From: a virus
Reading direction: 5' to 3' (one strand)
Length of the DNA stretch: 64,000 bases
IMG/VR virus record: IMGVR_UViG_3300033149_002975
Coordinates: 1 to 64,000 of that record
Positions 1 through 19,435 of this stretch are shown here, piece after piece. The notes beneath the pieces were generated by a model, which saw only the letters and a list, made by a program, of their open reading frames with translations, did no database searches and was not told the DNA's origin. Position 1 is the stretch's first letter. Each line of letters starts with the position of its first letter. The position numbers and the translations under genes are program-made.

Positions 1-80
1 ACTGCAATATTAGATGGTTGTTGCAAAGCTTCTTATATAGAATCAGATAAACTTCCGGTTTATTGAAAGGGAAAAAGAAA

Positions 81-449
81 ATGACAAAGACTCCATTTCA
101 CGACAAAAAGGGAAAAATCGTATTAAAACTCGAACCATTACGCGACATTTGTCTGATATACCCGATACCACCCAAAGATACGATTGGTGATAAAAAGACA
201 ATATTAATTCCGGATCAATACAAAGATAAGCATTATAAACCAGAAGGCGTGTTGTTGGCCGTTGGACCTGGTTACTATGATCCAAAAACTGGGGTCTATA
301 GGGAAGTTTCTAAAGCATTAAAACCAGGGGTAAAAGTAACTTTTGATTTAAATGTTCCATGGAGACAAACCGTAAAAGGTGTTGACGGTAAACAATATAC
401 AGTTGTTATGTGCACGGAACAAGATATCCAGTGTATAATCAAAGAATAA
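81..449 (+). CDS. groES: GroES/Cpn10-like co-chaperonin
   Basis: LEPLRD..., ILIPD, GVLLAVGPG, LKPGVKVTF and EQDI follow the Cpn10 pattern; ATG at 81 after AAAGGG. Confidence 0.7.
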   Translation: MTKTPFHDKKGKIVLKLEPLRDICLIYPIPPKDTIGDKKTILIPDQYKDKHYKPEGVLLAVGPGYYDPKTGVYREVSKALKPGVKVTFDLNVPWRQTVKGVDGKQYTVVMCTEQDIQCIIKE

Positions 450-452
450 ATT

Positions 453-1106
453 ATGGGTACATCTATTGAAAAATTTAAATTAGAAGAACGAATAAGAATA
501 GCATATTTGAAACACGCCGGCAATGTCGAGATGGTGGCAACCGATTGTAATGTTGATTATGCGTATGCGTTAAAAATATGCAATAAATTTAAAAAACGAC
601 AATCAAGGGATGTTAGTGTGTTTGTTGGAACAGCAATGGCTTCCTATATCCTAATGGGTGCTGAAGAACGTAAAGCACACATTCGTGAATTGTTGAATGA
701 AGAATTGAGCAAACAGCCGGTTGAGGTTTCTACGTGTTGTAATAAACCAATAAAGAAATTAATATGGGATAATGAACATCGTGCTGTCTGTCAAAAATGT
801 GGAAAAGATTGTTTATTTACATTAAAAGATACAAGAGATAAAAATTTTATTTTAAAATTACTAAAACAGTTGAGAGAAGATGATACAGTGATAGTAAAAG
901 CCGCCGAACAATTGGGGTTCGGAAACAAACAAGATGCACCATTAATTTCCAAAAAAGAAGTAAATTATAATCTACATTTAGGAAAAGATGACCAAGAATT
1001 GTTAAAAAGAGCCGAAGATTTAGACCCAAGAACCAGAGAAATGTTAAGAAACGATCTACGTAAACAAATAGCAGAGGCAAATTTTGAGGAGAAAGACAAA
1101 AATTAG
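453..1106 (+). CDS. Hypothetical protein with N-terminal HTH-like region and zinc ribbon; possible small terminase
   Basis: 217 aa; CC..CxxC motif; lies just upstream of TerL; function inferred from position only. Confidence 0.4.
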   Translation: MGTSIEKFKLEERIRIAYLKHAGNVEMVATDCNVDYAYALKICNKFKKRQSRDVSVFVGTAMASYILMGAEERKAHIRELLNEELSKQPVEVSTCCNKPIKKLIWDNEHRAVCQKCGKDCLFTLKDTRDKNFILKLLKQLREDDTVIVKAAEQLGFGNKQDAPLISKKEVNYNLHLGKDDQELLKRAEDLDPRTREMLRNDLRKQIAEANFEEKDKN

Positions 1107-1116
1107 GGGGAACAAA

Positions 1117-1458
1117 ATGGGAAATGCACGTCCAAAAATATGGGGTAAAAATACAGAGATATTCCGAAATGGGTCCGTAAGTGTTAATCTTTTGGATCTG
1201 GTGAAAGGCGGAACTTGTTCATATCATTATCATAAATTTAAATCCAATACCTTTTATGTAATCAGTGGAAAACTTAAAATTCATACTGAAATAGGTGACC
1301 ATATTTTACGTCAGGGTGAAAATTTTTTCCTGCCGCCTTTACTGAAACATCAATTCGAAGCAATGGAACCATCCATTGTTATAGAAATTATGTCCGTAGC
1401 TTACAATCACGATGACATTGTACGTGAAACCACTGGGTTTGTTAAAAATGAACAATAA
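1117..1458 (+). CDS. Cupin-domain protein
   Basis: KIWG, CSYHYHKFKSNTFYVISG and HQF cupin motifs; ATG at 1117 after AGGGGG. Confidence 0.75.
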   Translation: MGNARPKIWGKNTEIFRNGSVSVNLLDLVKGGTCSYHYHKFKSNTFYVISGKLKIHTEIGDHILRQGENFFLPPLLKHQFEAMEPSIVIEIMSVAYNHDDIVRETTGFVKNEQ

Positions 1459-3424
1459 AATTAATTCATATATTGATTATTTGTACAATCTTGACTATCG
1501 TGAAAAACCGGTAGATATTGATGTGTTCTTGGAATCCACTGAATTTTTGGGAAATGTTACGGAAAAAGGTCGAATAGTATATCCATATTGGCGCAATGTG
1601 CTAAATGATATATCAATAGAAGATAGTAAATATATAGTAGTATTAACCGGTAGTATTGGTTCAGGAAAAACTCGATGTGCTGTGTATGATGTTTGTTATA
1701 CAATGTATAGAATTTTATGCCTGAAAGATCCGTGGCAATTTTTCCACAAAGGTAGTGTCGGTCAATTTGCAATAATGTTTTTCAATCTAACAAAATCATT
1801 AAGCAAATCACGTGGTTATTCATTGGTCCAATCACATCTTTGTTCATCTCCGTGGTTTAGGTCACACGGAAGAATAGTTGGTCATGATGAAAATCAAAAA
1901 ATAGAATTTCCAATTTTTAATTATAAATTGTCATCTCCACAGATACAAGGTTTTGGTATTCTTGGTGAAGACATTATAATTGCAATGATGGATGAGGTTG
2001 ACAATCCAATAGCTTCCGAAAAACAGAGAATAAAAGTTTTAAAAGCCTATGATGCAGCAATAAGACGTTTTAAGGGTCGATTTGTTTTTGACGGTGAATC
2101 TATCGGAAGGTTCTTTTTATTGGCTTCAAAACAGGAAAAATTGTCCTTTTTGAATACTTACATCATAGGAATGGCTAATGACCCAAATGTGTATATAAAA
2201 GATGATTCTATATGGAATGTATTACCGGCAAATACTTATTGTGGTGACAAATTCAACGTCTCATTAGGTGATATATATAATCCACCCAAAATTATAGAAA
2301 CCGCAGATGATGTGGAGAAAATGTCTCGTTCCGGGTTTAAAATTATACAAGTTCCAATAGAATATAAAGTGGATTTTGAAAGGGATATGGTAGGGGCATT
2401 AAGGGATTTGGGTGGAATATCAGTTACACATTTACGATCATCAAAGCTCTTTTCATCAGAAGAAGTATTAATGAAATGCTATGATAGGTTTGACGACAAG
2501 AAGTTTAAACCTTGCCCGGTGAATAAAACTACAATTCCAATTGGATTAAAAGACGATATAAATTTGTTGGATTTTATTGACCTGTCGGAAATACCAACAC
2601 CAAGAAATGTTCCAAGATTTATACACGTAGATATAGCATTTACCGGTGACGCATTGGGTTTTGGAATGTCACACGTCGTTGGGTGGACCAAAATTACTAC
2701 AACAAGGCCCGATGGTACATTTTTAATAAATAAAAAACCGGTAGTAAGAACCGATTTTGGGCTGAGATTAAAAGCCAGACCCGGTGATCAAATACCACTG
2801 GATAAAGTCCACAAATTGATAATAGACCTGAAAGAAATTTGTGGATTCAATCTTCGATTAACAACTTTCGATTTAAAAATAGCATCCACTGTTTCTATGC
2901 AAACATTGACTCTGGCAGGAATCGAATGTGGTAGTTTATCGCTGGATAAAGACCCACAGTTATACAGAGGGTTTAGGGATTTAGTAAACGAGGGCCGGTG
3001 GGAAAGTCGTTATGATCCGTATTTACAATTTGAATTGGCTAATTTGGATGATGATCCACAAAAAAACAAAATAGACCACCCGGATAAAGTGCCAGATATT
3101 GTATTGCTGAAAGACGGCGGTACAAAAGAAATAGTTCTAGAGGGATCGAAGGATAAATCCGATGGTGTAGTTGGGAGTGTAATGAAAGCTTTGGAAATGT
3201 GTGAAATGCCGCCGGATATAGAAATAATGAAAAAAATGATGGATACCGCAACAGCAACAACCATAACACCGACAATTGATAAAATGCCAAAAGAATTACA
3301 GGGATTAATTGACCAACCAAAATCCGGTGTTGAACCAAAACAAAAAAATGATAAAAAAAATGATCAGGGAACAAGTAAAACAATGGAAATTTATAAAAAT
3401 ATTCTGAAAAAAACTATGGAATAG
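1448..3424 (+). CDS. terL: Terminase large subunit
   Basis: Walker A LTGSIGSGKT, Walker B AMMDEVD, RNase H-like FIHVDIA...D, C-terminal KIDHP..KDKSDGV. Confidence 0.88.
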   Translation: MNNKINSYIDYLYNLDYREKPVDIDVFLESTEFLGNVTEKGRIVYPYWRNVLNDISIEDSKYIVVLTGSIGSGKTRCAVYDVCYTMYRILCLKDPWQFFHKGSVGQFAIMFFNLTKSLSKSRGYSLVQSHLCSSPWFRSHGRIVGHDENQKIEFPIFNYKLSSPQIQGFGILGEDIIIAMMDEVDNPIASEKQRIKVLKAYDAAIRRFKGRFVFDGESIGRFFLLASKQEKLSFLNTYIIGMANDPNVYIKDDSIWNVLPANTYCGDKFNVSLGDIYNPPKIIETADDVEKMSRSGFKIIQVPIEYKVDFERDMVGALRDLGGISVTHLRSSKLFSSEEVLMKCYDRFDDKKFKPCPVNKTTIPIGLKDDINLLDFIDLSEIPTPRNVPRFIHVDIAFTGDALGFGMSHVVGWTKITTTRPDGTFLINKKPVVRTDFGLRLKARPGDQIPLDKVHKLIIDLKEICGFNLRLTTFDLKIASTVSMQTLTLAGIECGSLSLDKDPQLYRGFRDLVNEGRWESRYDPYLQFELANLDDDPQKNKIDHPDKVPDIVLLKDGGTKEIVLEGSKDKSDGVVGSVMKALEMCEMPPDIEIMKKMMDTATATTITPTIDKMPKELQGLIDQPKSGVEPKQKNDKKNDQGTSKTMEIYKNILKKTME

Positions 3425-3435
3425 AAAGTATAATA

Positions 3436-4026
3436 ATGAGCAATGAATTTAAACAAGGAATTATAAAAGATTTGGTAGTATTATGGAAATCCAATAGCAA
3501 TAAGAATTTCTATTTTGAAAAAATCCTCAAAAGAATCGATAAACTTATAATATATAAAATAGGAAAATTAAAACGACAATATAAACAATTGTCGGCTGTT
3601 CCAAACCAAGATTTATATAATACTGCTATTTTAGGTATATATAGAGCACTGGATTCTGTAAAAGACAAAGACTCTGGGGCTACCATTCAGGCAAGAATAT
3701 TATCATATATAAAAGAAGAAATAAGAAAAATTTATATGCCGCATAAAAAAGAAATAATTACTGAAAATATAGAAAAATGGGAAAATAAAATAGAATCAAA
3801 AGAACCAGAATTTACAACTATCGAATATGAAGAGTTGCGAGAAATTGTTAATAAATTAATAGATAATTTTCAATTACCAAAAGAAGATTTTGATATATTT
3901 ATAGACCACTATTTAAATAGAAAGACATACAAAAAAATTGCAGAAGAATTAAAAGTACACCATACAACCATTGCTAATAGAATAAAAAATGTTAAGAATC
4001 TACTTAGAAAATCCTTGGAAGGTTGA
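3436..4026 (+). CDS. Sigma70-family RNA polymerase sigma factor-like protein
   Basis: Region-2-like QDLYNTAILGIYRA and region-4 HTH KTYKKIAEELKVHHTTI. Confidence 0.7.
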   Translation: MSNEFKQGIIKDLVVLWKSNSNKNFYFEKILKRIDKLIIYKIGKLKRQYKQLSAVPNQDLYNTAILGIYRALDSVKDKDSGATIQARILSYIKEEIRKIYMPHKKEIITENIEKWENKIESKEPEFTTIEYEELREIVNKLIDNFQLPKEDFDIFIDHYLNRKTYKKIAEELKVHHTTIANRIKNVKNLLRKSLEG

Positions 4027-4089
4027 ATTTAAGATTAATAATTTACGAAAGTATAATTAAAATATGAAAATAAATATGTAAAAGAAATA

Positions 4090-4458
4090 ATGGAGATTGA
4101 CAATGAAATGACTAGAGCAACTGATCCAAACGGTGCTGGGAAAGGTGATGATTATCGTCGTGTGAATCCAATTAAATGGAATCGTGGATGGTTACGCCGC
4201 CCAAAATTTGGGTTTAAATGTCCGTGGTGTAATAAATCTGGTGATGAATCAGAAATTAACGAAAATTGTAAATTGTGTGGTGGTGTTGGATACTTGGATA
4301 AAAAATACTGGAAAGTTTGTAAAGTGTGTAAAGGTACGGGTGTTTGTGGGGTGCCGGATTTTATTTCATCAAATGAAATCTGTACTATACATGAATGTGA
4401 AAATTGTGGTGGTATCGGATATATTCAAAAGAATGGTTTATTAAAAAGGAGCCAATAA
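4090..4458 (+). CDS. DnaJ-type zinc-finger protein (no J domain)
   Basis: CPWCNKSG, CKLCGGVG, CKVCKGTG and CENCGGIG repeats. Confidence 0.65.
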   Translation: MEIDNEMTRATDPNGAGKGDDYRRVNPIKWNRGWLRRPKFGFKCPWCNKSGDESEINENCKLCGGVGYLDKKYWKVCKVCKGTGVCGVPDFISSNEICTIHECENCGGIGYIQKNGLLKRSQ

Positions 4459-5504
4459 TGCTACAGAAAGGTAAAATCAATATACTGATTGGTAATAGTT
4501 TCGGAAGTGAAGGAAAGGGAAACATTGCAGCATATATCGCAGAGAAATATAAACCGGATATTTGTATTTCACAAAATGGCCCTAACGCCGGTCATTGTTA
4601 TCTTAATGACTCTGGAGAAACAGAAATATTTAAAATGCTACCGGTATCCGGTGTTGTTGCAAAAAATTCAACAATCATCCTTGGATCCGGGTCGGTGATA
4701 GACGTTAAACGCCTCGAAAAGGAAATTGCTGACAATCCCGGTGTTGAAGATAGATTATTTATATCACCAACTGCACCAATAGTTGATGAATATTGTAAAG
4801 AATACGAGAGAAAACATCTACAGTATATTGCATCTACATTTCAGGGGACGGGCGCAGCAATTGGACTCAAAGCGATGCGTTCAGAAAAGATAAAATTAGC
4901 AGCAAATGTCAAAGAACTTGAGAAATATGTAAGAAACGACATACCTGATTGGTTGATCGAGCAATTGGCTGTTGGAAAAACGGCATTGGCCGAAGTTTCA
5001 CAGGGTATACATTTGTCTGTTGATAGTGAATTTTATCCATATTGTACCAGCCGTTCAATAAACGTTGGACAAATGTTTGCTTATCTGGATGTTCCGGTAA
5101 CTTTATTGGGGGATGTAATAGGCATAGCACGTAGTTACCCAATAAGAGTTGGTAATGTGGAAAAGGGACAATCTGGTAAAGTTTATCCAGATAGCAAAGA
5201 ATTATCCTGGGAAGAAATTTCTGAACGTATTGGACGACCCGTAAAAGAATTAACTACGGTCACCAAACGCGTTCGCAGGGTATTTGAATTTTCAAAAATC
5301 GGATTTGAAATGGGCGTTCGCAGAAATGGAATAAATATTTTATTCCTATCATTTGCTGATTATCTGAGGCCGGAAGAGAAAGAAAAAATGAAAAATTATT
5401 TATTTGATTTAAACGTATACACGTTACACGGGACAGAAATTAAAGAAATTTATTTTGTTAATGGTTTTGGTCAATTTGACAAAAATATTGAAAGAATAAA
5501 ATAA
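4458..5504 (+). CDS. purZ: PurZ-type adenylosuccinate synthetase paralog (N6-succino-2-amino-2'-deoxyadenylate synthase)
   Basis: FGSEGKG (Ser for the PurA catalytic Asp), PNAGH, FYPYCTSR, PIRVG, ELTTVTKRVRRV; ~348 aa; ATG overlaps the upstream TAA. Confidence 0.8.
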   Translation: MLQKGKINILIGNSFGSEGKGNIAAYIAEKYKPDICISQNGPNAGHCYLNDSGETEIFKMLPVSGVVAKNSTIILGSGSVIDVKRLEKEIADNPGVEDRLFISPTAPIVDEYCKEYERKHLQYIASTFQGTGAAIGLKAMRSEKIKLAANVKELEKYVRNDIPDWLIEQLAVGKTALAEVSQGIHLSVDSEFYPYCTSRSINVGQMFAYLDVPVTLLGDVIGIARSYPIRVGNVEKGQSGKVYPDSKELSWEEISERIGRPVKELTTVTKRVRRVFEFSKIGFEMGVRRNGINILFLSFADYLRPEEKEKMKNYLFDLNVYTLHGTEIKEIYFVNGFGQFDKNIERIK

Positions 5505-5506
5505 CA

Positions 5507-5737
5507 ATGGAACCAAGTTCAGAACAAAAAGTGGTTGATAATTTATTGTGTGCTTGTAATGGTTTACGATGTAGCGGGATATGTCGTAAAATAAACTTGT
5601 ACAGAAAACGTAAAAATCAAAATATTTGCCCATCTGCATATAAAAAAGGATCAGAATACAAAAAGCCCACAGAAAAAAAGGAAAAACAAATTAGAAATAA
5701 AAAATGGAGGAGGCAGCACGATGAACAAATCAGGTAA
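5507..5737 (+). CDS. Small basic Cys-containing hypothetical protein
   Basis: Tightly packed ORF in operon. Confidence 0.45.
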   Translation: MEPSSEQKVVDNLLCACNGLRCSGICRKINLYRKRKNQNICPSAYKKGSEYKKPTEKKEKQIRNKKWRRQHDEQIR

Positions 5738-6110
5738 ACGTGAAAAATTCAAGACCGGCGCAGTTAGGGATTCCGGGGACAACAAAATTCGTCCAGATGA
5801 AATATCACCATTTGCTACTCTAAGGGTAGCAAAACGAATGCTTGAGGGTGCAAAAACATATGGTGAAGGAAACTGGCAAAAAGGAATGTCATTTAAAAGA
5901 ACACTTGCTTCTCTTGAAAGACACGTTTTAGCCGTAAAATTAGGAATGAAAGATGAAGATCATTTAGCGGCAATTGTTTGTAACGCTAATTTTTTAATAC
6001 ATTATGAAGAAATGATAAAACTCGGATTATTGCCGGAAGAATTAAACGATTTACCGGATTACACAGCACACAATGTAAAAAAACGAAAGGAAAATAACGA
6101 TGAAAAGTAA
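5721..6110 (+). CDS. dATP/dGTP diphosphohydrolase domain protein (DUF5664-like)
   Basis: FKTGAVRD..KIRPD, GAKTYGEGNWQKG, SLERH, EDHLAAIVCN. Confidence 0.75.
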   Translation: MNKSGKREKFKTGAVRDSGDNKIRPDEISPFATLRVAKRMLEGAKTYGEGNWQKGMSFKRTLASLERHVLAVKLGMKDEDHLAAIVCNANFLIHYEEMIKLGLLPEELNDLPDYTAHNVKKRKENNDEK

Positions 6111-6687
6111 ATATAAATCAAAGTTCCCGATACCACAGTTGACAAGTCTTGATGATATTATTAGATACAAAGATCTGAAACGTGGGATAATTCGTGTATA
6201 CTCGTATATTGATGAATCTTTGGTACATCAGGTATCATTAGAAACTATGGAAATTTTGGAACTGGGTTGCAAGAAAATAACGTTACATATTGCATCACCC
6301 GGTGGTGGAGTGTATTCGTCATTTGCAATTCACGATATATTAAGAAAATTATCTAAGGATGGAATAAAAATCGAAGCTATTGTTGAAGGTTATGCGGCAT
6401 CTGCCGCAGCAGCAATAATTTTACAGGCTGCTGATAAGAGAATGTGCTACCAATTAACCAGATTTTTGTTACACGAAGTAAGAACGTGGAGTGATGGATT
6501 TCAGAGGAATTCGGATTTGAAAGATGAAGCAAAAGAAGTAGGTATTATTGATGAAATGGTAAATAAAATATTAGCTGATAAATGCAATAAAAGTATTAAA
6601 GAAATTCGACAATTAGTTAATAGGAAAGAAGTTTGGATGTCGGCAAAAGAAGCTTTGAAATTCGGATTGATAGACAAAATTATATGA
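6100..6687 (+). CDS. clpP: ClpP-like serine protease
   Basis: IASPGG, GYAASAA (catalytic Ser), FLLHE (His), WMSAKEALKFGLIDKI. Confidence 0.8.
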   Translation: MKSKYKSKFPIPQLTSLDDIIRYKDLKRGIIRVYSYIDESLVHQVSLETMEILELGCKKITLHIASPGGGVYSSFAIHDILRKLSKDGIKIEAIVEGYAASAAAAIILQAADKRMCYQLTRFLLHEVRTWSDGFQRNSDLKDEAKEVGIIDEMVNKILADKCNKSIKEIRQLVNRKEVWMSAKEALKFGLIDKII

Positions 6688-7502
6688 CAGAGGTACCAAT
6701 AAATCAAATTTTGTGTGGTAATTGTAATGAATTATTGGACACAATACAATCAGAAAGTATTGATTTAACTATAACTTCACCACCATACGGGAATCTAAGA
6801 GATTACCACGGCTACGTATTAAATACCAATGATTTATCAATGCAACTTTTACGAATAACAAAACCTGGAGGAATCGTAGTATGGGTTGTTGGGGATGAAA
6901 CTATTAATGGTTCCGAATCCGGGGAAAGTTTTAAGCAAGCATTACAGTTTATACAACATGGCTGGTTGTTACATGACACCATGATATATGCTAAAAGTTC
7001 ATTTTCTTATCCATCAACAAAGGAATCAATGAGGTACCATCAACAATTTGAATTTATGTTTATATTCAGTAAAGGAAAACCAAAAACTTTTAATCCAATA
7101 ATGGATAAATTGAATGCTTATAAACAAGGTGGTGGTGATTGCAAAAGGCAAAAAGACGGTACATTAAAACGTGGTAAACGAAGTGGCACACCGTTAAATA
7201 AATATGGGATGCGTAACAATATTTGGACCTATGTTACTGGTGGTGGACATCATTCAGACTTTAAAAGATCGTCGGAACACCCAGCAACTTTTCCAGACCA
7301 ATTGGCAATTGATCACATAAAAAGTTGGAGTAACAAGGGTGATTTAATATTAGATCCAATGTGTGGTAGTGGAACAACTTGCGCTATGGCATATAAATTG
7401 GGGCGTAATTATATAGGAATCGATATTTCACCGGATTATTGTCAATTGGCAAAAGACAAAATTAAATATGAAGAAAAAATTAAAGCGGGAGAAATTTTCT
7501 AA
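6684..7502 (+). CDS. Beta-class DNA amino-methyltransferase (SPPY; probably N4-cytosine)
   Basis: TSPPY precedes HPATFP and LDPMCGSGTT; ATGA overlap with the clpP-like stop. Confidence 0.85.
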   Translation: MTEVPINQILCGNCNELLDTIQSESIDLTITSPPYGNLRDYHGYVLNTNDLSMQLLRITKPGGIVVWVVGDETINGSESGESFKQALQFIQHGWLLHDTMIYAKSSFSYPSTKESMRYHQQFEFMFIFSKGKPKTFNPIMDKLNAYKQGGGDCKRQKDGTLKRGKRSGTPLNKYGMRNNIWTYVTGGGHHSDFKRSSEHPATFPDQLAIDHIKSWSNKGDLILDPMCGSGTTCAMAYKLGRNYIGIDISPDYCQLAKDKIKYEEKIKAGEIF

Positions 7503-8152
7503 TGTCAGCAATTAAAACACCAGTATATTATACAAAAACAAAAGAAGGCGGACACGACGTATTTTTAATTTACGAACCCAAAAAAGAGGAACTAAAAAGT
7601 GGCTATACCGCCAAATGTTGGAAAGAAGATGAAGCAAAAGCCATTTGTGATTCAATAAATGGTAATGGGGTTACAAATAAGGAACAAAAATATCGAGAAT
7701 TCGTAATGAAACTTCAGCAGCAAAGGGCTGAAGCCGGTGTTGAAACCAAAGATATGCTTAGCAGTAAATTAACTTTTTTGCTTGCACACGCAGCGATGGG
7801 TATGGTAACGGAAGCCGCAGAAATATTGGATATTATCAAAAAGCATTTGGTATACCGCCGTCCCCTCGATTTCACGAAAATTAAAGACGAGTGCGGTGAC
7901 AGTTTGTTTTATCTAACAATGGCTATTATTGAATGTGGTTCAAACTACAATGAAATAATTGATATGAATATGGCCAAATTGAACGCCAGATACAAAGGCA
8001 GATATACGCACGAACAAGCTAACAGCAGAAATCTAGAAGAGGAGAAAAAAGCTCAAATGAAAGTCGTGAGTCCGGCATTGTCTGGCGGTATTACAGAAGA
8101 AGAAGCTTTAAAAGCTAAATATTTTGACAAGGATAAAGGTTGGATAACATAA
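7502..8152 (+). CDS. MazG-like nucleotide pyrophosphohydrolase with N-terminal extension
   Basis: GMVTEAAEILDIIKK...DECGDSLFY...NMAKLNARY. Confidence 0.8.
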   Translation: MSAIKTPVYYTKTKEGGHDVFLIYEPKKEELKSGYTAKCWKEDEAKAICDSINGNGVTNKEQKYREFVMKLQQQRAEAGVETKDMLSSKLTFLLAHAAMGMVTEAAEILDIIKKHLVYRRPLDFTKIKDECGDSLFYLTMAIIECGSNYNEIIDMNMAKLNARYKGRYTHEQANSRNLEEEKKAQMKVVSPALSGGITEEEALKAKYFDKDKGWIT

Positions 8153-8922
8153 ACGCTAGACAAATAACCAGATTATTGAGAAATAAACATCGCGAAGATG
8201 TATTTGTTTCACAGTGCAAAGATGGTCCTACAGGATATGGCTTGGCACAAATAGATGCTTGGGTTATGAAAAAGTCATGGGCACACCCTTTAATGATCGG
8301 ATACGAAATAAAAATTAACAGACAAGATTTTTTACGCGACAACAAATGGCCCAATTATTTAGAAATGTGCAACGAATTGGTATTCATTTGTCCGTGGGAT
8401 ATAATACACGTTAATGAAGTGCCGGACAGTTGTGGTTTAATGTGGGTCTCAAAAACTGGGACGAGAATTACCACGAAGAAAAAAGCACCATACAGGGAGA
8501 TTGAAGAACCCGTAAACCTTTTAAAATATTTGTTAATGGCCAGAACAACAATCGACCCGGAGTATAAAAGCGGCAATGGCTACACAAAAGAATTTTGGGA
8601 AAATTGGTTGGCCAACAAAAAGAAAAATTGGTATTTTGGGCACAACCTTGGAAAATCACTTCGTGAAGAAATAGAAAAGAAAATCTTAGAAGTTGATTCT
8701 GAAAACGCACGTTTACGAAATCTCGTAATTGGTTATGAAAAAATAGCCACAGTAATTAAAGAATTGGGATTTGATTCAAAGAATTTTTCTACATATCAAA
8801 TATCAAATGCACTTCGGGATTTGAAACGGGTAATTCCACAAGATCTGGTACGGACAATCAGTAATTTGAAAGATTGTTTGGTAAGAACGGAAGAAAATTT
8901 TAAAGAACACGGAATTGAATGA
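8140..8922 (+). CDS. MmcB-family PD-(D/E)XK nuclease-like protein
   Basis: IDAW...GYEIKINRQDFLRDNKW..Y...C. Confidence 0.7.
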   Translation: MDNINARQITRLLRNKHREDVFVSQCKDGPTGYGLAQIDAWVMKKSWAHPLMIGYEIKINRQDFLRDNKWPNYLEMCNELVFICPWDIIHVNEVPDSCGLMWVSKTGTRITTKKKAPYREIEEPVNLLKYLLMARTTIDPEYKSGNGYTKEFWENWLANKKKNWYFGHNLGKSLREEIEKKILEVDSENARLRNLVIGYEKIATVIKELGFDSKNFSTYQISNALRDLKRVIPQDLVRTISNLKDCLVRTEENFKEHGIE

Positions 8923-9146
8923 TTAATAAAATTATCATCATATCATTGTTAGCAGCAACTTCTGAAATATACGGTTTGTATCTGGTTGGAAATAAAAATA
9001 AATTTGGATTTATTCTTAATATAATATGTTGTTTGTTGTGGATTATAACATCAATAATTAGTAAAGTATACGGCCTGTCAATAAGTGCCGGAGTAATGTT
9101 ATTTCTAAACATAAGAAATTATAAAAAATGGTCTAATGGGGTCTAA
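8919..9146 (+). CDS. Small three-TM membrane protein (PnuC/SemiSWEET-like size)
   Basis: Three hydrophobic stretches, basic C-terminus NYKKW. Confidence 0.55.
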   Translation: MINKIIIISLLAATSEIYGLYLVGNKNKFGFILNIICCLLWIITSIISKVYGLSISAGVMLFLNIRNYKKWSNGV

Positions 9147-9148
9147 AT

Positions 9149-9829
9149 ATGAATACCGACACGTATTGGTTAATTATTCTTCAATTACTTATAGTTTGCG
9201 TTGAAATATTCACCCATTGGCGTGTAACATCTTCCAGACCTATAAGAAGAAAACACGGGTGTATGGCCGGATTGACTGTCCAATTCTTATGGTTGGTAGT
9301 TTTTGTTTGTGTCAAAACTTGGTATCTATTGCCTTTATTGGTTATTAATGGGTATATATGGCATAGGGGATACAAAAAGGCCAAATGGATCTCTGAACAT
9401 AATAGACGATCTGGCTACAGAATAAAGTTGTATATGAGTCATCCAATAAGGGGATCAAAAATTGATGAAGCGTCTTTGGAAATTCAGCTATCGAATTCAC
9501 AAAGGGCAAAAGATGCATCCTTTGAAATTATGACAAAAATTGAAGCTTTGGATATCTACACACCGGGAAATGCTGAGGATTTTGTTGGTCTAACATATTC
9601 CGAGGGTCTATTGACCGATAAACAAATATTAGATATTGATTGTAAAATACTAGATAAATGCGATGGTTTAATAGTTTATGATTTTGATAAATCAAAAGGT
9701 GTTGAAACCGAAGTTGCGTACGCAAAAAAACACAATATGCCGATTTTGAGATTTGAAAAATTGAATTCAAAAACCATAGATAGAATACAGAAATTCGTAA
9801 ACGATTTAATGTATATTAAGAAAGGATAA
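9149..9829 (+). CDS. N-terminal membrane domain fused to a nucleoside 2-deoxyribosyltransferase-like domain
   Basis: ~75 aa hydrophobic N-terminus; KLYMSHPIRG, DCKILDKCDGLIV, SKGVETEVAYA..HNMPI. Confidence 0.6.
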   Translation: MNTDTYWLIILQLLIVCVEIFTHWRVTSSRPIRRKHGCMAGLTVQFLWLVVFVCVKTWYLLPLLVINGYIWHRGYKKAKWISEHNRRSGYRIKLYMSHPIRGSKIDEASLEIQLSNSQRAKDASFEIMTKIEALDIYTPGNAEDFVGLTYSEGLLTDKQILDIDCKILDKCDGLIVYDFDKSKGVETEVAYAKKHNMPILRFEKLNSKTIDRIQKFVNDLMYIKKG

Positions 9830-9833
9830 CAAA

Positions 9834-10901
9834 ATGTCATATTCTCCTGAAATAAAGAAACAAATAATTGATAGTTTTGATCCAAACGAAATATCAATTG
9901 AAGAACATGCGAGAGAATGTAATATATCAACAAGAACGTTACGACGGTGGTTGAAAGGAAAAACCAATAAAATTATAACAAAAGAATCAGAACACCCAAT
10001 GCCAAATTTTCTGAAAGACCTTGGGAAAGAATATGACGTAATACGGGAATTGGGAAGACTGGCGGAAAGGGTAAAAGAACACGATAAGAAGGATAAAGAT
10101 TACTGTAAGATAGCAATAAAAACCAATAAACCAATAGCAGTAATAAAAGCCGCCGATCTCCACCTTGGTGGTTTAGACGTGGATTATGCATCATTGTTGG
10201 AACATTATAAATTTCTTCTTGAAGAACCAAATTTTTATCTGCAATTGTTTGGTGATGATATCAACTTGATGGTAATGCATAGAACTGTTGCTGCAAGACA
10301 CGATGCATTAACACCGGATGAACAAGCAAATTTATTGGTTGGAATAGTTAATGAATTGTTGGCCAAGGGCAAACTTTTAAGCATGGGTTGGGGTAACCAC
10401 GAAGAATTCACGGAAAGAAGTGCCGGGTTCAATCTAACAAAATTACTATTAAGTCATAAAGTTCCGTATTTTTCTGCTACCGGCTATATTGATCTGGTTA
10501 TCAATGATATAACATACCCAATGGCTTTTGCACATAAAACCAGATTTAATTCATTTACGAACGCCGTACACGGGAATAAAAGACTCGAACAAATGCACGC
10601 CCAATATTTCGGTGTAAATAGGCCGATTGCTCACGAATATATAACTGCACATACGCATTACCCGGCAGTGTCACACGAAGGCTGTTTGCCGGAAGAACGC
10701 ATTTGGTATATAAAATGTGGTACGTATAAAACCAATGATTTATATTCCAGAAGGTATTTCGGTAGTGGCAGAATAGGAACGCCGACCGTCGTATACCACC
10801 AGGACAGATTTGAACACATATGTTTCCCAACTCCATATGAAGCTTATCGTTATATGACTGGCCACGATTGGTCGGGACTTAAAAATTTAAAGAAAAAATA
10901 A
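9834..10901 (+). CDS. HTH + calcineurin-like metallophosphoesterase
   Basis: ARECNISTRTLRRW HTH; DLHLG, GDD, GNHE, H and HTH metal-binding motifs. Confidence 0.75.
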   Translation: MSYSPEIKKQIIDSFDPNEISIEEHARECNISTRTLRRWLKGKTNKIITKESEHPMPNFLKDLGKEYDVIRELGRLAERVKEHDKKDKDYCKIAIKTNKPIAVIKAADLHLGGLDVDYASLLEHYKFLLEEPNFYLQLFGDDINLMVMHRTVAARHDALTPDEQANLLVGIVNELLAKGKLLSMGWGNHEEFTERSAGFNLTKLLLSHKVPYFSATGYIDLVINDITYPMAFAHKTRFNSFTNAVHGNKRLEQMHAQYFGVNRPIAHEYITAHTHYPAVSHEGCLPEERIWYIKCGTYKTNDLYSRRYFGSGRIGTPTVVYHQDRFEHICFPTPYEAYRYMTGHDWSGLKNLKKK

Positions 10902-10938
10902 CAAAATTCGAGAAACAATAATATTAAAGGGATACAAA

Positions 10939-11193
10939 ATGAAAAAAGTTGAATTTAAAGCAATTACCGGCCCAGGACATACAGTTACTATTATTGTAAA
11001 TGCGGATATGGTTTGTATGATAGTTCCAGCGACTGTCGAGGGGGAGGTTGTTGGACCGGATAAAAAACCAATACCAAAATTGGTGGCGGGTTTAGATTTT
11101 GGAGTTAGAGTTATACCCGTGGATTGTTCGATTCAGGAAGCTACTGAAAAAATATTTGGTGAAGATGGATACACAAAACCACGGGTAGATTAA
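10939..11193 (+). CDS. Hypothetical protein
   Basis: ORF with AAAGGGA RBS. Confidence 0.6.
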   Translation: MKKVEFKAITGPGHTVTIIVNADMVCMIVPATVEGEVVGPDKKPIPKLVAGLDFGVRVIPVDCSIQEATEKIFGEDGYTKPRVD

Positions 11194-11198
11194 CAGAC

Positions 11199-11273
11199 AT
11201 TTCCTGTATATATTCCCATCTATTTCCCACGCCTCCGGTTGTGTGGGGATACATAAAAGCTATATTGGTATAT
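11199..11273. repeat. Dispersed 75-bp element, copy 1
   Basis: 72/75 identical to 19361-19435, including 53 bp exact. Confidence 0.9.
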
Positions 11274-11376
11274 ATACCCACAAACCTCCTGTCCGAACAA
11301 ACGTTAGGAACGTTACGAACGTTACCACCGGAATATATCCAAATATATAAAATTAATCGGGAATATGTGAAAAGAC

Positions 11377-11405
11377 TTGCACAGAGACTTTCCGTATATT
11401 ATAAT
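11377..11405 (+). promoter_or_regulatory. Sigma70-type promoter
   Basis: TTGCAC-17 nt-TATAAT upstream of the ATG at 11451. Confidence 0.7.
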
Positions 11406-11450
11406 TTATATAGAAAGAAGATAAAAATGTTAATAGAAAGGAAAGCCAAA

Positions 11451-11954
11451 ATGAATAAAAAATACGAAATTACGTCCGAAACAAAAATAGTAAACGGCGT
11501 TATACTTCACCGAATCAGGGCATTACGTGATTTTGGTAATGTGAAAGCTGGTGATTTGGGCGGTTGGATCGAAAAAACGGAAAGCTTATCCCATAATGGG
11601 AATTGTTGGGTATATGACAACGCCGAATTATATGGCGGTGCGCTGGTTGATTACGGTGCCAGAGTATATGGCAATGCCCAAATATTTGAGAACGCCCAGG
11701 TATTTGGTGAAGCCACAGTATATGGTAATGCCAAAATATATGGTAATGCCCAAGTGTATAACAGGGCTTGTGTATCCGGCGACGCTTTGGTGTACGGTAA
11801 CGCCTGGGTGCATGGTAACGCCTGGGTACACGACAATGCCCAGGTATTTGGTAATGCCCTGGTATTTGATAGCGCTGAGGTGTATGGCAACGCCAAAATA
11901 CGCGGTACCGCTTGGATATGTGGCAAAGACAAAGTACGTGGTGAATATGCATAA
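11451..11954 (+). CDS. Phage hexapeptide-repeat (VYGNAx) beta-helix protein
   Basis: LHRIRALRDFGNVKAGDLGGWIE followed by many VYGNA-type hexapeptide repeats; GAAAGGA RBS. Confidence 0.75.
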   Translation: MNKKYEITSETKIVNGVILHRIRALRDFGNVKAGDLGGWIEKTESLSHNGNCWVYDNAELYGGALVDYGARVYGNAQIFENAQVFGEATVYGNAKIYGNAQVYNRACVSGDALVYGNAWVHGNAWVHDNAQVFGNALVFDSAEVYGNAKIRGTAWICGKDKVRGEYA

Positions 11955-11978
11955 CACAATAAAAAGGAAAAAAATAAA

Positions 11979-12281
11979 ATGAGAATAACAAAAAATAATT
12001 ACAAATACCCGATTTTGGGTTTCATCTTCGAGTTTATCACAACATTTTGTGTATACTCGTGGATAATCTTTAAAATAACAATGAAAATTTCCTGGTTCAT
12101 CATTAAATGGACGTTCTTGATTTCCACGTGTATTCTTGGGGCATTTTTCGCTGCAAGTGCCGTTTACAATAGAATAATGGAAAATCAAGCAAGGCGTAAC
12201 ATACTTTCGGAAATGAACCGGCAAATATTACATGGAACATTCAACAGTGAATCAGCAAAACAATTCATGAGGATGAATTAA
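11979..12281 (+). CDS. Hypothetical membrane protein
   Basis: Long hydrophobic segment; AAAGGA RBS. Confidence 0.55.
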   Translation: MRITKNNYKYPILGFIFEFITTFCVYSWIIFKITMKISWFIIKWTFLISTCILGAFFAASAVYNRIMENQARRNILSEMNRQILHGTFNSESAKQFMRMN

Positions 12282-12282
12282 A

Positions 12283-12597
12283 ATGAAAAATAACAGATGT
12301 GGACTAATTGACCAGCCGACAGATGACGGGCGATGCGAAGTTAAAGTGTTAGACAGCAAAGGGTGGCATACACATAGATGTCCATTTAGGGCCAAAGTCA
12401 CCGTTGACGGTGTCCACTACTGTGGCAATCACGACCCGCTCAGAAGAGCAAAAAAACAAGAAGAAAAAAACGAGAGATGGAGAGAAAAGAAAAAAAAGCG
12501 TGAATATGAAATTTACGCAACCTTGTTTTGTAAAAAACAAAATTTAACTCTCAAAGATTTAATGAAAAAGATAGAAGAGTACGAAAATGCTAAATGA
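12283..12597 (+). CDS. Hypothetical Cys/His zinc-binding protein
   Basis: RC...RCPF...YCGNHDP. Confidence 0.55.
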   Translation: MKNNRCGLIDQPTDDGRCEVKVLDSKGWHTHRCPFRAKVTVDGVHYCGNHDPLRRAKKQEEKNERWREKKKKREYEIYATLFCKKQNLTLKDLMKKIEEYENAK

Positions 12598-12856
12598 CAA
12601 AGACAAACAAGAAATACAAAAATTAATAAACAAGTGCGACACCGCCGATGAAGTAATGTTTATTAACAATTTGTGCAAAATTAAATTTGATGTAATAGCC
12701 CTTGCAGCAACCGCATCATTCTACCCCGGCCTGAAAGTTTATTGGGGGAATGAATTAGAGGGTGTTGTAGAAAGCGTTGGTACAAAAAACGTAAAAGTCA
12801 ATGTGAATGGTGTGATGTGGAGGGTTGCAGCAACACTTTTGAGGACAGAAAAATGA
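12587..12856 (+). CDS. Hypothetical protein, SH3-like C-terminus
   Basis: GLKVYW...GVVESVGTKNVKV...WRVAATLL. Confidence 0.55.
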   Translation: MLNDKDKQEIQKLINKCDTADEVMFINNLCKIKFDVIALAATASFYPGLKVYWGNELEGVVESVGTKNVKVNVNGVMWRVAATLLRTEK

Positions 12857-13038
12857 ATTCAGAATTGACATATGAAGATGTAGTAGATGTTTTAGAATAT
12901 CTACCGGAAAGCAAGAAGGACGATAATCTACTAATACATTATATCACGCTGTTGGTTAATACATTTGGTAGATCGCAGGATTATCGTCCAATTTCGGGTA
13001 CCACACAAGTGAGCAAAAATAAAAGGGGACAAGAATGA
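12853..13038 (+). CDS. Hypothetical protein
   Basis: ATGA overlaps at both ends. Confidence 0.45.
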   Translation: MNSELTYEDVVDVLEYLPESKKDDNLLIHYITLLVNTFGRSQDYRPISGTTQVSKNKRGQE

Positions 13039-13370
13039 AAAATGGTAGATATGGGTTGATAAAATATTGGTGGACACTGTTCAAAATCAAGATATTACCG
13101 AAGATTGTTGGACGGACAATCAGATATGGCGTATTCAGCAAACGCACGCTACACAGGGATAGGCGTGGATACGTCGAAATTGGGGTCATAGTTGGTTCGT
13201 CTGGATTGTATGCTGGGGCACCACCAAACGAACTAATGATCGAAAATGTGTTTCCACTACAAGAAATTGACATGTGGAGACAAGTCATCAGAGAAACAAA
13301 CAAAACTAGGGATTTACCGTCATACGTCGGTAAAGCAAAAATCCGTGTTTACGGATTAGAGATTACATAG
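13035..13370 (+). CDS. Hypothetical protein
   Basis: ORF with AAAGGGG RBS. Confidence 0.5.
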   Translation: MKNGRYGLIKYWWTLFKIKILPKIVGRTIRYGVFSKRTLHRDRRGYVEIGVIVGSSGLYAGAPPNELMIENVFPLQEIDMWRQVIRETNKTRDLPSYVGKAKIRVYGLEIT

Positions 13371-13377
13371 AATAAAA

Positions 13378-13449
13378 CGCCCCGTAGTTTAATGGTTAGA
13401 ATCCCGGACCTTCAATCCGGTGATTTGGGTTCAATTCCCAACGGGGCGA
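13378..13449 (+). tRNA. tRNA-Glu(UUC), atypical C33, CCA not encoded
   Basis: Acceptor CGCCCCG/CGGGGCG, D stem GTTT/GAAT, anticodon arm CCGGA-CCTTCAA-TCCGG, 4-nt variable loop, T arm TTGGG-TTCAATT-CCCAA. Confidence 0.88.
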
Positions 13450-13476
13450 ATTAAAATTATGGAAAGGATAGTAATA

Positions 13477-13656
13477 ATGGAAACAATCTCTAAAATATTA
13501 ACAAAAATTGAAAAATCCTTAGGGCATTATGTACCAATTGGTGGTCCTGCCCCGCCATACATTAAAACAGACGATAAAACAATTCAAGAATGCCTTGGAT
13601 TATTACGACGTGAATTACAAAAACAACATTTAATTGAAAGGACCGATAAATGCTAA
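13477..13656 (+). CDS. Hypothetical protein
   Basis: GAAAGGA RBS before the ATG at 13477; the longer start at 13420 falls inside the tRNA. Confidence 0.5.
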   Translation: METISKILTKIEKSLGHYVPIGGPAPPYIKTDDKTIQECLGLLRRELQKQHLIERTDKC

Positions 13657-14183
13657 AATCAAAAATAAACCTTAATCAATACATGGACGTTATAAAATCT
13701 CACGCAAGGGTTGGGTACATAAAATTACGACACCCTTCTGTGTATTCAATTGATGATTTAGTACAGGAAGGTGTTTTAGTATTTTATCACGTATTCGATA
13801 TATACAGGGAAAACGGTCCGGCGGCATTTAGAACTTTACTGGTTCGGTCATTAAGAAATCATTATATAACAATGATGAAAAAATCTTTCAATCAGCGAAC
13901 CGGTTCAGATATCAAATCATCAGAATACCCAATAAATCACCCATTAGTCAGATATGCAGAACGTAGAAGAATAACTATGTCTGGGATGACGTCTGAAGAT
14001 ATTGTTGATTCAGAAGACAACATTTTAACGATTATGAATAAATTGAATAATAAAGAGAGAAATTATATACAATTAGTAATAAAATACGGCAGAAAATCCA
14101 CAAGGGGAATAATGCATATGTCGCTATTTATGGAAAACAAAATGCGAAAACGAATTCAAAATAAATGTAAAAACAACAATTAA
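13650..14183 (+). CDS. Second sigma-factor-like protein
   Basis: IDDLVQEGVLVF..FRTLL..LRNH region-2-like; LNNKER region-4-like. Confidence 0.6.
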   Translation: MLKSKINLNQYMDVIKSHARVGYIKLRHPSVYSIDDLVQEGVLVFYHVFDIYRENGPAAFRTLLVRSLRNHYITMMKKSFNQRTGSDIKSSEYPINHPLVRYAERRRITMSGMTSEDIVDSEDNILTIMNKLNNKERNYIQLVIKYGRKSTRGIMHMSLFMENKMRKRIQNKCKNNN

Positions 14184-14208
14184 AAGGAAATGATTCAAAG
14201 GGATAAAA

Positions 14209-14403
14209 ATGAGAACGGAAAATGAAATTAAGACCAAATTATCGGAAGCCCTGCAAGAAGCTAAACAGCTGCAAGGCAAAGAACGGGAGCTTGTAAACAT
14301 AGCAATAATGACATTGCAATGGGTGCTGAAACAACCGCTATTCAAGCCAGTTGCAATCAATACTGTAGAATTGGAAACCATTCTTGGCAACAGAATCCAA
14401 TAA
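14209..14403 (+). CDS. Hypothetical protein
   Basis: AAAGGGATAAAAATG start. Confidence 0.55.
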   Translation: MRTENEIKTKLSEALQEAKQLQGKERELVNIAIMTLQWVLKQPLFKPVAINTVELETILGNRIQ

Positions 14404-14409
14404 ACACCG

Positions 14410-14658
14410 ATGGCAAATAAAAATATTTTATTTGAAATACAAAAGGAGATAGAAAAGATGACGATGAATGTCGGAGATATAAGAAAGATCATTGAGGATG
14501 TTCCAGATAAAACACCGGTGATCGTTTGCTTCACCAAAGATAATTGGACATCCCACGATGTTAAGATCACATTTGAATCCGGAAATGAAGAAATAAAAGA
14601 CGTCTGTAACGAACCCACTCTTATCATTTGGGAAGGAACGGGTGCGTTAAGGTGGTGA
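14410..14658 (+). CDS. Hypothetical protein (alternative start 14458)
   Basis: Last ORF of the plus arm. Confidence 0.45.
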   Translation: MANKNILFEIQKEIEKMTMNVGDIRKIIEDVPDKTPVIVCFTKDNWTSHDVKITFESGNEEIKDVCNEPTLIIWEGTGALRW

Positions 14659-14827
14659 GGAAGAAAAAAACGATAAAGCAAATAGGTAAAGAATAACCGA
14701 TGATAGTTGCACAGGAATTGAGATTTTAAGAAAAGCCATAAACGTTCACCGGAAATCAAAATTAACTGAAAGATTACTTGGTTATAAGGTTGATGTAACC
14801 GAATTGCGGTTAATACCCTATATCATT

Positions 14828-15436: not shown

Positions 15437-15782
15437 AATCAGCCCTTTTTCCTAATGATCGTTTCGTTTCTCTGAGTTGTTTTTCCAACTCAACAAGTCG
15501 TATACGTTCTAAACGCCGTTCCTTTGCTTCTTTAGGAGTTGGTGGAATTTTACTTTTTATCAAATCTCTTGTTGTTAATTTGTATTCTATTAATTTGTGA
15601 ACGATACTTATACCTTGGGAGAAAGCAGTTTCCAACAAAGGAATTAGCTTCTTAAGGACTTCCGGCTTATCCTGCATATTTAAAACTATAATATCGTATA
15701 TTTGCTGGTGAACTTCACAAATGGACATTTTCTTTTGAGAATATTTTCCTTTGTGCGTTTGAAAAATTTTACTATAAATCAT
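15429..15782 (-). CDS. Hypothetical protein
   Basis: Coupled ORF in glycosylation cluster. Confidence 0.55.
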   Translation of the reverse strand: MIYSKIFQTHKGKYSQKKMSICEVHQQIYDIIVLNMQDKPEVLKKLIPLLETAFSQGISIVHKLIEYKLTTRDLIKSKIPPTPKEAKERRLERIRLVELEKQLRETKRSLGKRADYV

Positions 15783-19348: not shown

Positions 19349-19360
19349 CTATTAAATAGT

Positions 19361-19435
19361 ATTTCCTGTATATATTCCTACATATTTCCCACGCCTCCGG
19401 TTGTGTGGGGATACATAAAAGCTATATTGGTATAT
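19361..19435. repeat. Dispersed 75-bp element, copy 2
   Basis: Same orientation as copy 1; fills the 19349-19421 gap and overlaps the last codons of the upstream minus-strand gene. Confidence 0.9.

Follow-up and report, generated by a model that had tools for sequence, protein, structure and literature searches.

A PurZ-type synthetase and a candidate 2-aminoadenine pathway in a contractile-tailed, AT-rich phage

The DNA analysed here comprises positions 1 to 64,000 of the IMG/VR virus record IMGVR_UViG_3300033149_002975 (the window, 64,000 nucleotides), and its subject is a gene for a PurZ-type synthetase together with the nucleotide-editing genes that lie just downstream. The gene set is best read, with a probability of roughly 0.7, as a working pathway for 2-aminoadenine (Z), in which a PurZ-type enzyme specific for deoxyguanosine monophosphate (dGMP) would supply the precursor, the nucleotide pool would shift from deoxyadenosine triphosphate (dATP) to its Z counterpart (dZTP), and progeny DNA would have most or all of its adenine replaced by Z. 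Two Z toolkits are distinguished, one consisting of PurZ with DatZ, MazZ and DpoZ, the other of PurZ0 with DutZ and DmtZ. Most likely, the synthetase has features between those of PurZ0 and PurZ, with a toolkit for clearing A that stands nearer to that of the PurZ0 phages than to that of phiVC8 or S-2L. A first-pass annotation, made from the letters of the window, had proposed a PurZ-type synthetase and a possible Z genome in a large T4-like myovirus.

The PurZ-type synthetase

The gene (Table 1) consists of 348 sense codons and a stop codon with no internal stop. The frame and its three divergent motifs, GSEGKG, PIRVG and ELTTVT, had been picked out in the first-pass annotation and are confirmed by translation and by alignment with three bacterial PurA. 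The motifs stand at residues 15-21 (FGSEGKG), 227-232 (YPIRVG) and 264-269 (ELTTVT) of the protein, with the PurA carrying WGDEGKG, Y[ST][TS]RVG and EYG[AT]TTG in the same columns. The ATG at 4458 overlaps the stop codon of an upstream zinc-finger-like open reading frame (ORF) in the sequence TAATG, with AAGGAG situated 8 nt upstream, and it is preferred over a longer ORF beginning with TTG at 4404 because 25 homologues start at the same residue in the alignment.

Homology to the adenylosuccinate synthetase family is far above chance, since the Pfam model Adenylsucc_synt (PF00709) is matched with 123 bits against a cut-off of 27 and PHROG 1211 ('2-aminooxy adenylosuccinate synthetase') at 8.8e-59. 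A search of the PDB places phiVC8 PurZ first (177 bits, E 4.5e-51) and S-2L PurZ second (129 bits, 2e-36), followed at lower scores by archaeal short PurA (92 bits), the PurZ0 of Gordonia phage Archimedes (7VF6, 74 bits) and classical PurA (53-72 bits). Identity to the best sequence matches, phiVC8 (6FM1/6FKO) and S-2L (7ODX) PurZ, is 39.7% over 86% of the query. Among NCBIfam models, PurZ NF038379 ranks at the top (208.9 bits, E 9e-62).

Substrate-site residues point in the same direction. Ser17, within GSEGKG, occupies the position of the catalytic Asp13 of PurA and is invariant in 26 members of the query clade; 99% of PurA-group sequences are reported to carry Asp13, and every one of 147 phage sequences from the PurZ group carries Ser (PMC12884076). 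In S-2L PurZ the PurZ-specific substrate-contacting residues are S23, T273 and Q308, and an insertion after a conserved Val pulls a loop near C2' and is tied to deoxyribose selectivity (PMC8342488). Thr266 of the query corresponds to the PurZ-specific T273, and the insertion is present after IRVG (NVEKGQSGKVYPDS), being 4 residues longer than that of phiVC8. The third site differs, as Asp301 (in SFAD), invariant in the clade, stands where the PurZ of phiVC8, S-2L, PMBT28 and Acinetobacter, Klebsiella and Burkholderia phages have Asn or Gln. The donor-base position is also Asp in PurA ([TN][KS][LI]D) and in PurZ0 ([ST]MxD), and so the phosphate donor of the query would more likely be GTP than ATP, the donor of the PurZ of phiVC8 and S-2L. 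PurZ0 reportedly uses GTP (Tong et al., 2023), and this is the basis of its assignment to GTP here. Published wording conflicts on this matter, PurZ0 and PurZ being stated in one paper to prefer 'ATP and GTP, respectively' (PMC12884076) and PurZ in another to use ATP (PMC8342488).

Phylogenies were computed for the query, its metagenomic relatives, IMG/VR homologues and 10 named phage enzymes, with three bacterial PurA and no archaeal PurA as the outgroup. The three trees obtained, a 96-row quick tree (LG+G4), a 67-row quick tree (LG+C20+F+G4) and a 67-row careful mixture-model tree, agree. The group carrying Ser at the Asp13 position (Ser-type) is split from bacterial PurA with a Shimodaira-Hasegawa-like approximate likelihood ratio test (SH-aLRT) value of 100 in both quick trees and with 96/87 in the careful one, so that a comparison which the first-pass annotation had looked to as a check places the query apart from PurA and inside the Ser-type group. 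In the careful tree the query clade contains 14 rows at 100/100, or 95/95 with one further sequence (P0049) added. Characterised PurZ (phiVC8, S-2L, PMBT28 and SH-Ab 15497) fall in an 11-row clade (99/92) with the query clade outside it, the smallest clade uniting the two having 44 rows (91/86). The PurZ0 of Archimedes, Litotes and Spocter form a separate basal clade at 100/100, or 97/87 with environmental kin, which does not include the query. About 48 cluster-level relatives, at 51-78% identity and with 76 invariant columns, belong to the query clade.

The replacement of Asp13 by Ser, the insertion, PurZ as the top match in the PDB, PHROG and NCBIfam, and the nesting within the Ser-type clade together support assignment of the 348-residue protein to the PurZ type and not to PurA. 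By its position in these trees the query belongs to the broadly defined PurZ group, yet to neither named subgroup, as its own 100/100 clade lies outside both characterised PurZ and PurZ0. The earlier suggestion of a PurZ or PurZ0 enzyme stands as regards PurZ type against PurA; it does not stand as regards a typical member of either, given this clade, the modest NF038379 score and Asp301.

Comparison with known enzymes underlines this mixed character. As in phiVC8 and S-2L PurZ, the protein has Ser for Asp13, a TTVTK aspartate loop containing the Thr specific to PurZ, the post-IRVG insertion and a length within about 340-360 aa, whereas its P-loop is GSEGKG instead of GSTGKG and Asp301 stands in place of Asn297 or Gln308. 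The GSE P-loop and the donor-site Asp are shared with PurZ0, from which the query departs in its insertion, its score of only 74 bits to 7VF6 and its separate clade. The short archaeal PurA of Pyrococcus horikoshii (5K7X/2D7U), representing the third group of PDB matches, has the same short architecture but acts on inosine monophosphate (IMP) by PurA chemistry, the query being far closer to phage PurZ and possessing Ser17. An archaeal origin of PurZ has been proposed (PMC8342488).

Helper genes, the polymerase and the proposed route to Z-DNA

Candidate helper genes span at most 4.3 kb downstream of purZ, on the same strand and syntenic in related metagenome contigs. The nearby DUF5664, MazG-like and NDT-like genes make the context consistent with a Z pathway, and more so than the first-pass annotation could see. 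The stand-alone DUF5664 protein, a predicted dATP/dGTP diphosphohydrolase, is 31% identical to gp51 of Arthrobacter phage Wayne, which is encoded by the DUF5664-domain gene adjoining Wayne's PurZ0, and it matches the N-terminal domain of PMBT28 MazZ. The Wayne stand-alone enzyme turns dATP, dGTP and dUTP into deoxynucleoside monophosphates, with dATP preferred 10-fold (PMC12884076). The gene is syntenic in four related contigs (L100, L095, L098 and L112), and a stand-alone DUF5664 gene occurs in 3/3 searched IMG/VR records with a same-clade PurZ; since these three dissimilar genomes all carry it, PurZ and DUF5664 travel together across phages. The MazG-like protein scores 20.6 bits with Pfam MazG, slightly below the cut-off, and has an ExxE...ExxD motif, its gene staying beside purZ and the DUF5664 gene in L095, L098 and L100. 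It is followed on the same strand by a gene for an MmcB-like protein and then by the NDT-like gene.

The NDT-like protein has an NDT/DNPH1 fold and is a candidate DmtZ-like dAMP N-hydrolase/transferase. Its AlphaFold (AF2) model, built from nine sequences, has a mean predicted confidence (pLDDT) of 78, highest in the C-terminal domain, and shows an alpha/beta domain with three long hydrophobic helices N-terminal to it. Foldseek matched the model to 1T1J, several NDTs, DNPH1/Rcl and MilB (probability 1.00; template-modelling (TM) score on the target 0.43-0.67; E 1.6e-3 to 7e-2), and the same kinds of structural neighbour are given for DmtZ (PMC12884076). Nine homologues all keep Tyr95 and Glu188, the reference residues in DmtZ being the catalytic Tyr6 and the nucleophile Glu103 of the Ghobes enzyme. 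When the family was aligned by hhalign with the N-terminal domain of Wayne NDT-Dut (E 0.0056, probability only 6.5%), Tyr95 and Glu188 fell opposite Tyr and Glu; a direct sequence match was not found. DmtZ hydrolyses dAMP and moves the sugar phosphate to Z (PMC12884076), and NDT domains are associated with contigs enriched in deoxy-Z (dZ) (bioRxiv 10.1101/2025.10.22.683976). The gene is syntenic in L100 (6e-48). Some 90 residues (9149-9420) precede the NDT fold; the closest homologues keep them and distant ones have another hydrophobic segment. A membrane-anchored enzyme of the NDT family would be unusual.

In the proposed pathway, the DUF5664 enzyme and the MazG-like pyrophosphatase would convert dGTP to dGMP, the substrate of PurZ, and dATP to dAMP. 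PurZ would join dGMP with aspartate, probably at the expense of GTP, and dZTP would be completed by host PurB and host kinases, neither PurB nor guanylate kinase (Gmk) having been found in the whole genome. The NDT/DNPH1-fold protein, probably membrane-tethered, would destroy dAMP and may pass deoxyribose-5-phosphate to free Z in the manner of DmtZ. A DNA polymerase fused to a uracil-DNA glycosylase (UDG) domain would then insert whatever the pool supplies.

This polymerase is the only one encoded. The first-pass annotation was correct that the window holds neither a DatZ-like HD hydrolase nor a DNA polymerase, and it had proposed a search of the remaining genome for both; DatZ was not found there, and the polymerase proved to be an 855-aa PolA located beyond the window. 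Its N-terminal family-4-like UDG domain covers residues 36-210 (TIGR00758, 102 bits) and has GLCPG in place of the GEAPG of family 4, with HPS at residue 197. Identification of the enzyme as DpoZ was rejected, as its score with the DpoZ model NF038380 is 88 bits against a cut-off of 500 (generic Pol I, 231 bits) and its identity to phiVC8 DpoZ is 21%, the nearest cultured relatives being the UDG-PolA enzymes of SPO1-like Bacillus phages at 24%. Since PolA is not DpoZ, exclusion of A would rest on editing of the pool, as in S-2L. UDG domains co-occur with dZ-enriched contigs according to a preprint, and the SPO1-like UDG-PolA type has been linked to T-modified genomes (PMC13697223). Thymidine hypermodification, at which the fusion hints, is unsupported here, with no thymidylate-synthase homologue and no dUTPase in the whole genome.

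Several points weigh against a working Z pathway. The best-studied parts for excluding A (DatZ, DUF550, dUTPase/DutZ and DpoZ) are all missing from the genome. For DatZ, neither the HD models PF01966, PF12917 and PF13023 nor the DatZ of phiVC8, S-2L, PMBT28 and Bm1 as queries gave any match in the whole genome, and with all three models and four queries blank, a divergent HD protein acting as DatZ was rejected. DUF550 is likewise absent from the genome, in which S-2L MazZ as a query found no match, and for dUTPase/DutZ there was neither a PF00692 match at E <= 1 nor a match to the Dut proteins of Wayne or Archimedes. The synthetase lies outside every biochemically tested clade, and its dGMP specificity is therefore extrapolated; its 208.9 bits on NF038379 are under the curated PurZ cut-off of 300. 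Asp301 might equally take hydrogen bonds from adenine N6, and GTP use is therefore not certain. The assignment of the NDT-like protein is based on weak scores (Foldseek E of 1.6e-3 or above, hhalign probability 6.5%). Three DNA methyltransferases are encoded, two of the beta-class N6_N4 type in which motif IV reads SPPY (N4-cytosine-like) and one a Dam-family enzyme with DPPY, the latter suggesting that adenine or Z is a target at N6; were A replaced by Z, the Dam-like enzyme would act on Z or idle. The record is metagenome-derived, with no isolate, and its genome has 35.5% GC (64.5% A+T), whereas contigs predicted to contain dZ reportedly have a higher GC content than canonical contigs (bioRxiv 10.1101/2025.10.22.683976).

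The main rival is a partial pathway, in which the genome would be a mixture of A and Z or Z would be raised only in some hosts or conditions. The genome-wide lack of DatZ, DUF550, Dut and DpoZ and the Dam-family methyltransferase are in keeping with it, as is the finding that the Z-cluster alone, placed in E. coli, converts a significant share of DNA adenine but not all (PMC8342488). We nevertheless consider it unlikely, though to be taken seriously, because PurZ0 genomes, which are free of DatZ and carry DutZ, DmtZ and DUF5664, are treated as those of Z-DNA phages (PMC12884076), and the present genome holds analogues of 2/3 of the PurZ0 helper activities and a second, MazG-like enzyme, all of them syntenic in related contigs. 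According to PMC8065100, moreover, S-2L is fully substituted despite a non-selective PrimPol.

A different DNA modification, based on another purine deoxynucleotide derived from dGMP or on another N6-substituted 2-aminopurine, is improbable. The depth of the query clade outside the tested enzymes, a donor site unlike that of PurZ, the lack of a phage PurB and a set of conserved, unexplained neighbours (the 76-aa ORF, ClpP, an MmcB-like nuclease and the SPPY methyltransferases) would fit such chemistry, but no extra enzyme of plausible chemistry was found, phiVC8 and S-2L likewise depend on host PurB, and the helper set is close to the published logic of Z synthesis. Least probable of all is a role unrelated to Z, with the protein serving as an auxiliary PurA that uses IMP or its deoxy form dIMP to supply adenylate to an AT-rich genome, a reading that can draw on membership of the adenylosuccinate synthetase family, the PurA-like glutamate of the GxEGKG P-loop and PurA-like donor-site Asp, the base composition and the score under the PurZ cut-off, and that is opposed by Ser in place of an Asp found in 99% of the PurA group (PMC12884076), a nested position among the Ser-type sequences, split from bacterial PurA (100; in the careful tree 96/87), an insertion linked with selection for deoxyribose and flanking helper families specific for deoxynucleotides.

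A Z pathway thus remains the preferred reading, and its likeness to known systems can be set out gene by gene. The phage setting next to enzymes that edit deoxynucleoside triphosphates is shared with phiVC8 and S-2L, which differ in that DatZ, MazZ-1/MazZ-2, DUF550, DpoZ and PrimPol were not recognised here and in being phages of about 40-45 kb with a non-contractile tail instead of a 103-kb contractile-tailed one. The Z-cluster of Acinetobacter phage SH-Ab 15497 and Salmonella phage PMBT28 consists of DpoZ, PurZ, a DUF5664::DUF550 MazZ and DatZ; the order of PurZ followed by a DUF5664-domain dATP/dGTP diphosphohydrolase is the same, but here DUF5664 is unfused, with no DUF550, DatZ or DpoZ. 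The PurZ0 system of actinophages, known from Archimedes (7VF6), Ghobes and Wayne, comprises PurZ0, DutZ and DmtZ with or without a stand-alone DUF5664, and resembles the present one in an adjacent stand-alone DUF5664, an NDT-fold protein and the lack of DatZ. It differs in that DutZ, of the dUTPase family and encoded in 98/98 PurZ0 genomes (PMC12884076), is missing here, that the polymerase is not DpoZ-1 and that a hydrophobic segment extends the NDT-like protein at its N-terminus.

The virus and its relatives

The record is a single contig of 102,811 bp with a terminal overlap of 114 bp, classed in IMG/VR as having direct terminal repeats. CheckV gives a completeness of 66% despite these repeats and despite the fact that L100 crosses the contig ends in the same gene order, and this figure probably reflects the scarcity of close reference genomes. 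The composition (35.5% GC) agrees with the AT-rich genome expected from the window. A tail sheath protein, whose best cultured match is in Xanthomonas phage phiXF1 (35% identity), and a T4 gp6-like baseplate wedge subunit establish a contractile tail. Capsid protein, prohead protease and portal are encoded, as are DnaB, primase, a beta-clamp-like factor, a clamp loader and a UvsX-like recombinase for replication. Of the 'large T4-like myovirus' originally described, the contractile tail holds; at 102.8 kb, not about 170 kb, the genome is not large, and a place among T4-like phages (Straboviridae) was rejected at the genome level on account of PolA, here fused to UDG, DnaB, the beta-clamp-like factor and the lack of PolB (no PF00136 match in the whole genome). 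As judged from the encoded proteins, resemblance to T4 is confined to the sheath and the baseplate wedge.

Table 1. Features discussed in the text, with coordinates in the record (positions above 64,000 lie beyond the window)
Feature	Position	Strand	Basis
Large terminase subunit, 670 aa	1412-3424	+	ESM Atlas MJ0330_N P-loop/terminase clusters, score 0.99; structure TM 0.78
Sigma-factor-like small protein	3436-4026	+	
purZ-type gene, 348 aa, succino-amino-deoxyadenylate synthase homologue of new clade	4458-5504	+	Pfam, PHROG, PDB, NCBIfam, motifs, trees
Basic, Cys-rich ORF between purZ and DUF5664 gene, 76 aa	5507-5737	+	Same position in L112, 1e-27; no PHROG or Pfam match
Stand-alone DUF5664 protein, 129 aa, predicted dATP/dGTP diphosphohydrolase	5721-6110	+	PF18909 dGTP_diPhyd_N, 65.5 bits (cut-off 27); phrog_801
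ClpP-family protease	6100-6687	+	PF00574, 102 bits; syntenic in L100, L112, L098
Beta-class N6_N4 DNA methyltransferase, SPPY motif IV	6633-7502	+	PF01555, 141.7 bits; syntenic in L100, L112
MazG-like all-alpha NTP pyrophosphohydrolase, 216 aa	7502-8152	+	phrog_229, 1.2e-30
NDT/DNPH1-fold protein, 226 aa, candidate DmtZ-like dAMP N-hydrolase/transferase	9149-9829	+	phrog_355, 1.1e-8; DUF7768; DUF4406; structure model
Sigma-factor-like small protein	13650-14183	+	
Nucleotide-diphospho-sugar transferase-like protein	14828-15436	-	
Protein with sialyltransferase-like and methyltransferase-like parts, 533 aa	19422-21023	-	
Baseplate wedge subunit, T4 gp6-like	27251-28951	-	phrog_219, 1.4e-67
Tail sheath	40456-42105	-	phrog_23, 1.4e-88
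DNA methyltransferase	83641-84426	+	
DNA methyltransferase	85576-86418	+	
M42 glutamyl aminopeptidase	87308-88384	+	212 bits
UDG-PolA DNA polymerase, 855 aa	89703-92270	+	TIGR00758, 102 bits (UDG domain); generic Pol I, 231 bits

The large terminase, with no Pfam, PHROG or PDB match, is the most conserved gene across related contigs (1e-238 to 1e-274). A PDB sequence search with this 670-aa protein and with the DUF5664, MazG-like and NDT-like proteins gave no useful match, and a scan of positions 1-14500 for promoters and terminators stayed at chance level (64 against 63.1 expected, and 9 against 8.8 expected). Sigma-factor-like small proteins flank the purZ block (phrog_1740, 7.9e-8; Sigma70_r2, 21 bits, below the cut-off). 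An M42 glutamyl aminopeptidase and the ClpP protease lie among the replication and nucleotide genes, and in L095 an M42 homologue is found within the purZ cluster. Next to the tail genes lie a protein resembling nucleotide-diphospho-sugar transferases and a 533-aa protein whose parts resemble a sialyltransferase and a methyltransferase.

Megablast with window positions 1-20000 found no cultured phage closely related at the DNA level. Related metagenome loci were recovered with an alignment as the query, a single protein having given none, and the genome-level relatives are the contigs L100, L095, L096 and L116. L100 is collinear over about 23 genes, a stretch that begins at the recombinase block, crosses the contig ends and continues through the terminase, purZ, DUF5664, ClpP, methyltransferase, MazG-like and NDT-like genes. 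L095, L098 and L112 keep purZ with the DUF5664 gene, plus the MazG-like gene where the sequence extends, and in L116, taken from a contig of 116 kb, purZ adjoins homologous baseplate genes. IMG/VR records carrying a same-clade PurZ (57-58% identity) were rejected as genome relatives, showing weak similarity in replication genes only and no sheath match.

To our knowledge, chemical proof of Z-DNA is confined to small phages whose tails are non-contractile. The first-pass annotation had described the characterised Z-phages as having smaller genomes and tails of this kind, and the records bear it out: cultured PurZ-group phages among the matches listed (of 218 records) have genomes of 38-83 kb, three larger or odd records among those matches being host contamination, and no sheath gene was found in the five cultured PurZ phages tested. 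Z phages are described as Siphoviridae and Podoviridae in PMC8599892, and the literature searched gave no link of PurZ to myoviruses or jumbo phages. In IMG/VR, Ser-type homologues occur on many contigs of 100-408 kb, and a sheath gene was present in 4/5 jumbo contigs tested, four of these five coming from a further Ser-type PurZ clade (100/100). That clade (IMG/VR L013-L030, L038, L041, L044, L045, L051, L053, L054 and L082) is found on contigs of about 17-408 kb, most of them 100-408 kb, has mostly GSCGKG or GSTGKG together with NFAN or NFIQ as its motifs, and showed no DatZ, DpoZ or DUF5664 within 10 kb of the PurZ gene. Homology searches therefore indicate that a PurZ homologue is no rarity in large contractile-tailed phages from metagenomes, and the present setting is undescribed in the literature searched, though not rare in sequence data.

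Implications for Z-using viruses

A PurZ-side synthetase, PurZ0-style helpers and a PurA-style donor site are joined here in a complete, AT-rich, contractile-tailed phage genome of 103 kb. The gain is limited, as metagenomic PurZ homologues already number in the thousands (PMC13128860). A more specific picture can be drawn, which we offer tentatively and at somewhat less than even odds: a lineage of Z-DNA viruses of about 100 kb with contractile tails and AT-rich genomes would possess a third kind of PurZ, intermediate in evolution and combining the PurZ substrate loop with the GTP site of PurA and PurZ0, and would exclude A without DatZ, DutZ or DpoZ, relying on a MazG-like enzyme, a stand-alone DUF5664 and a DmtZ-like dAMP hydrolase tethered to the membrane, with UDG-PolA copying the resulting DNA.

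If a Z pathway does operate in this phage, the span of Z-using viruses and of their genome sizes would be broader, and the synthetase would offer a natural intermediate for the switch of phosphate donor from GTP to ATP. Pool editing would then suffice without DatZ or DpoZ, and full substitution at 64.5% A+T would alter the stability of the DNA to a greater extent than in any known Z phage.

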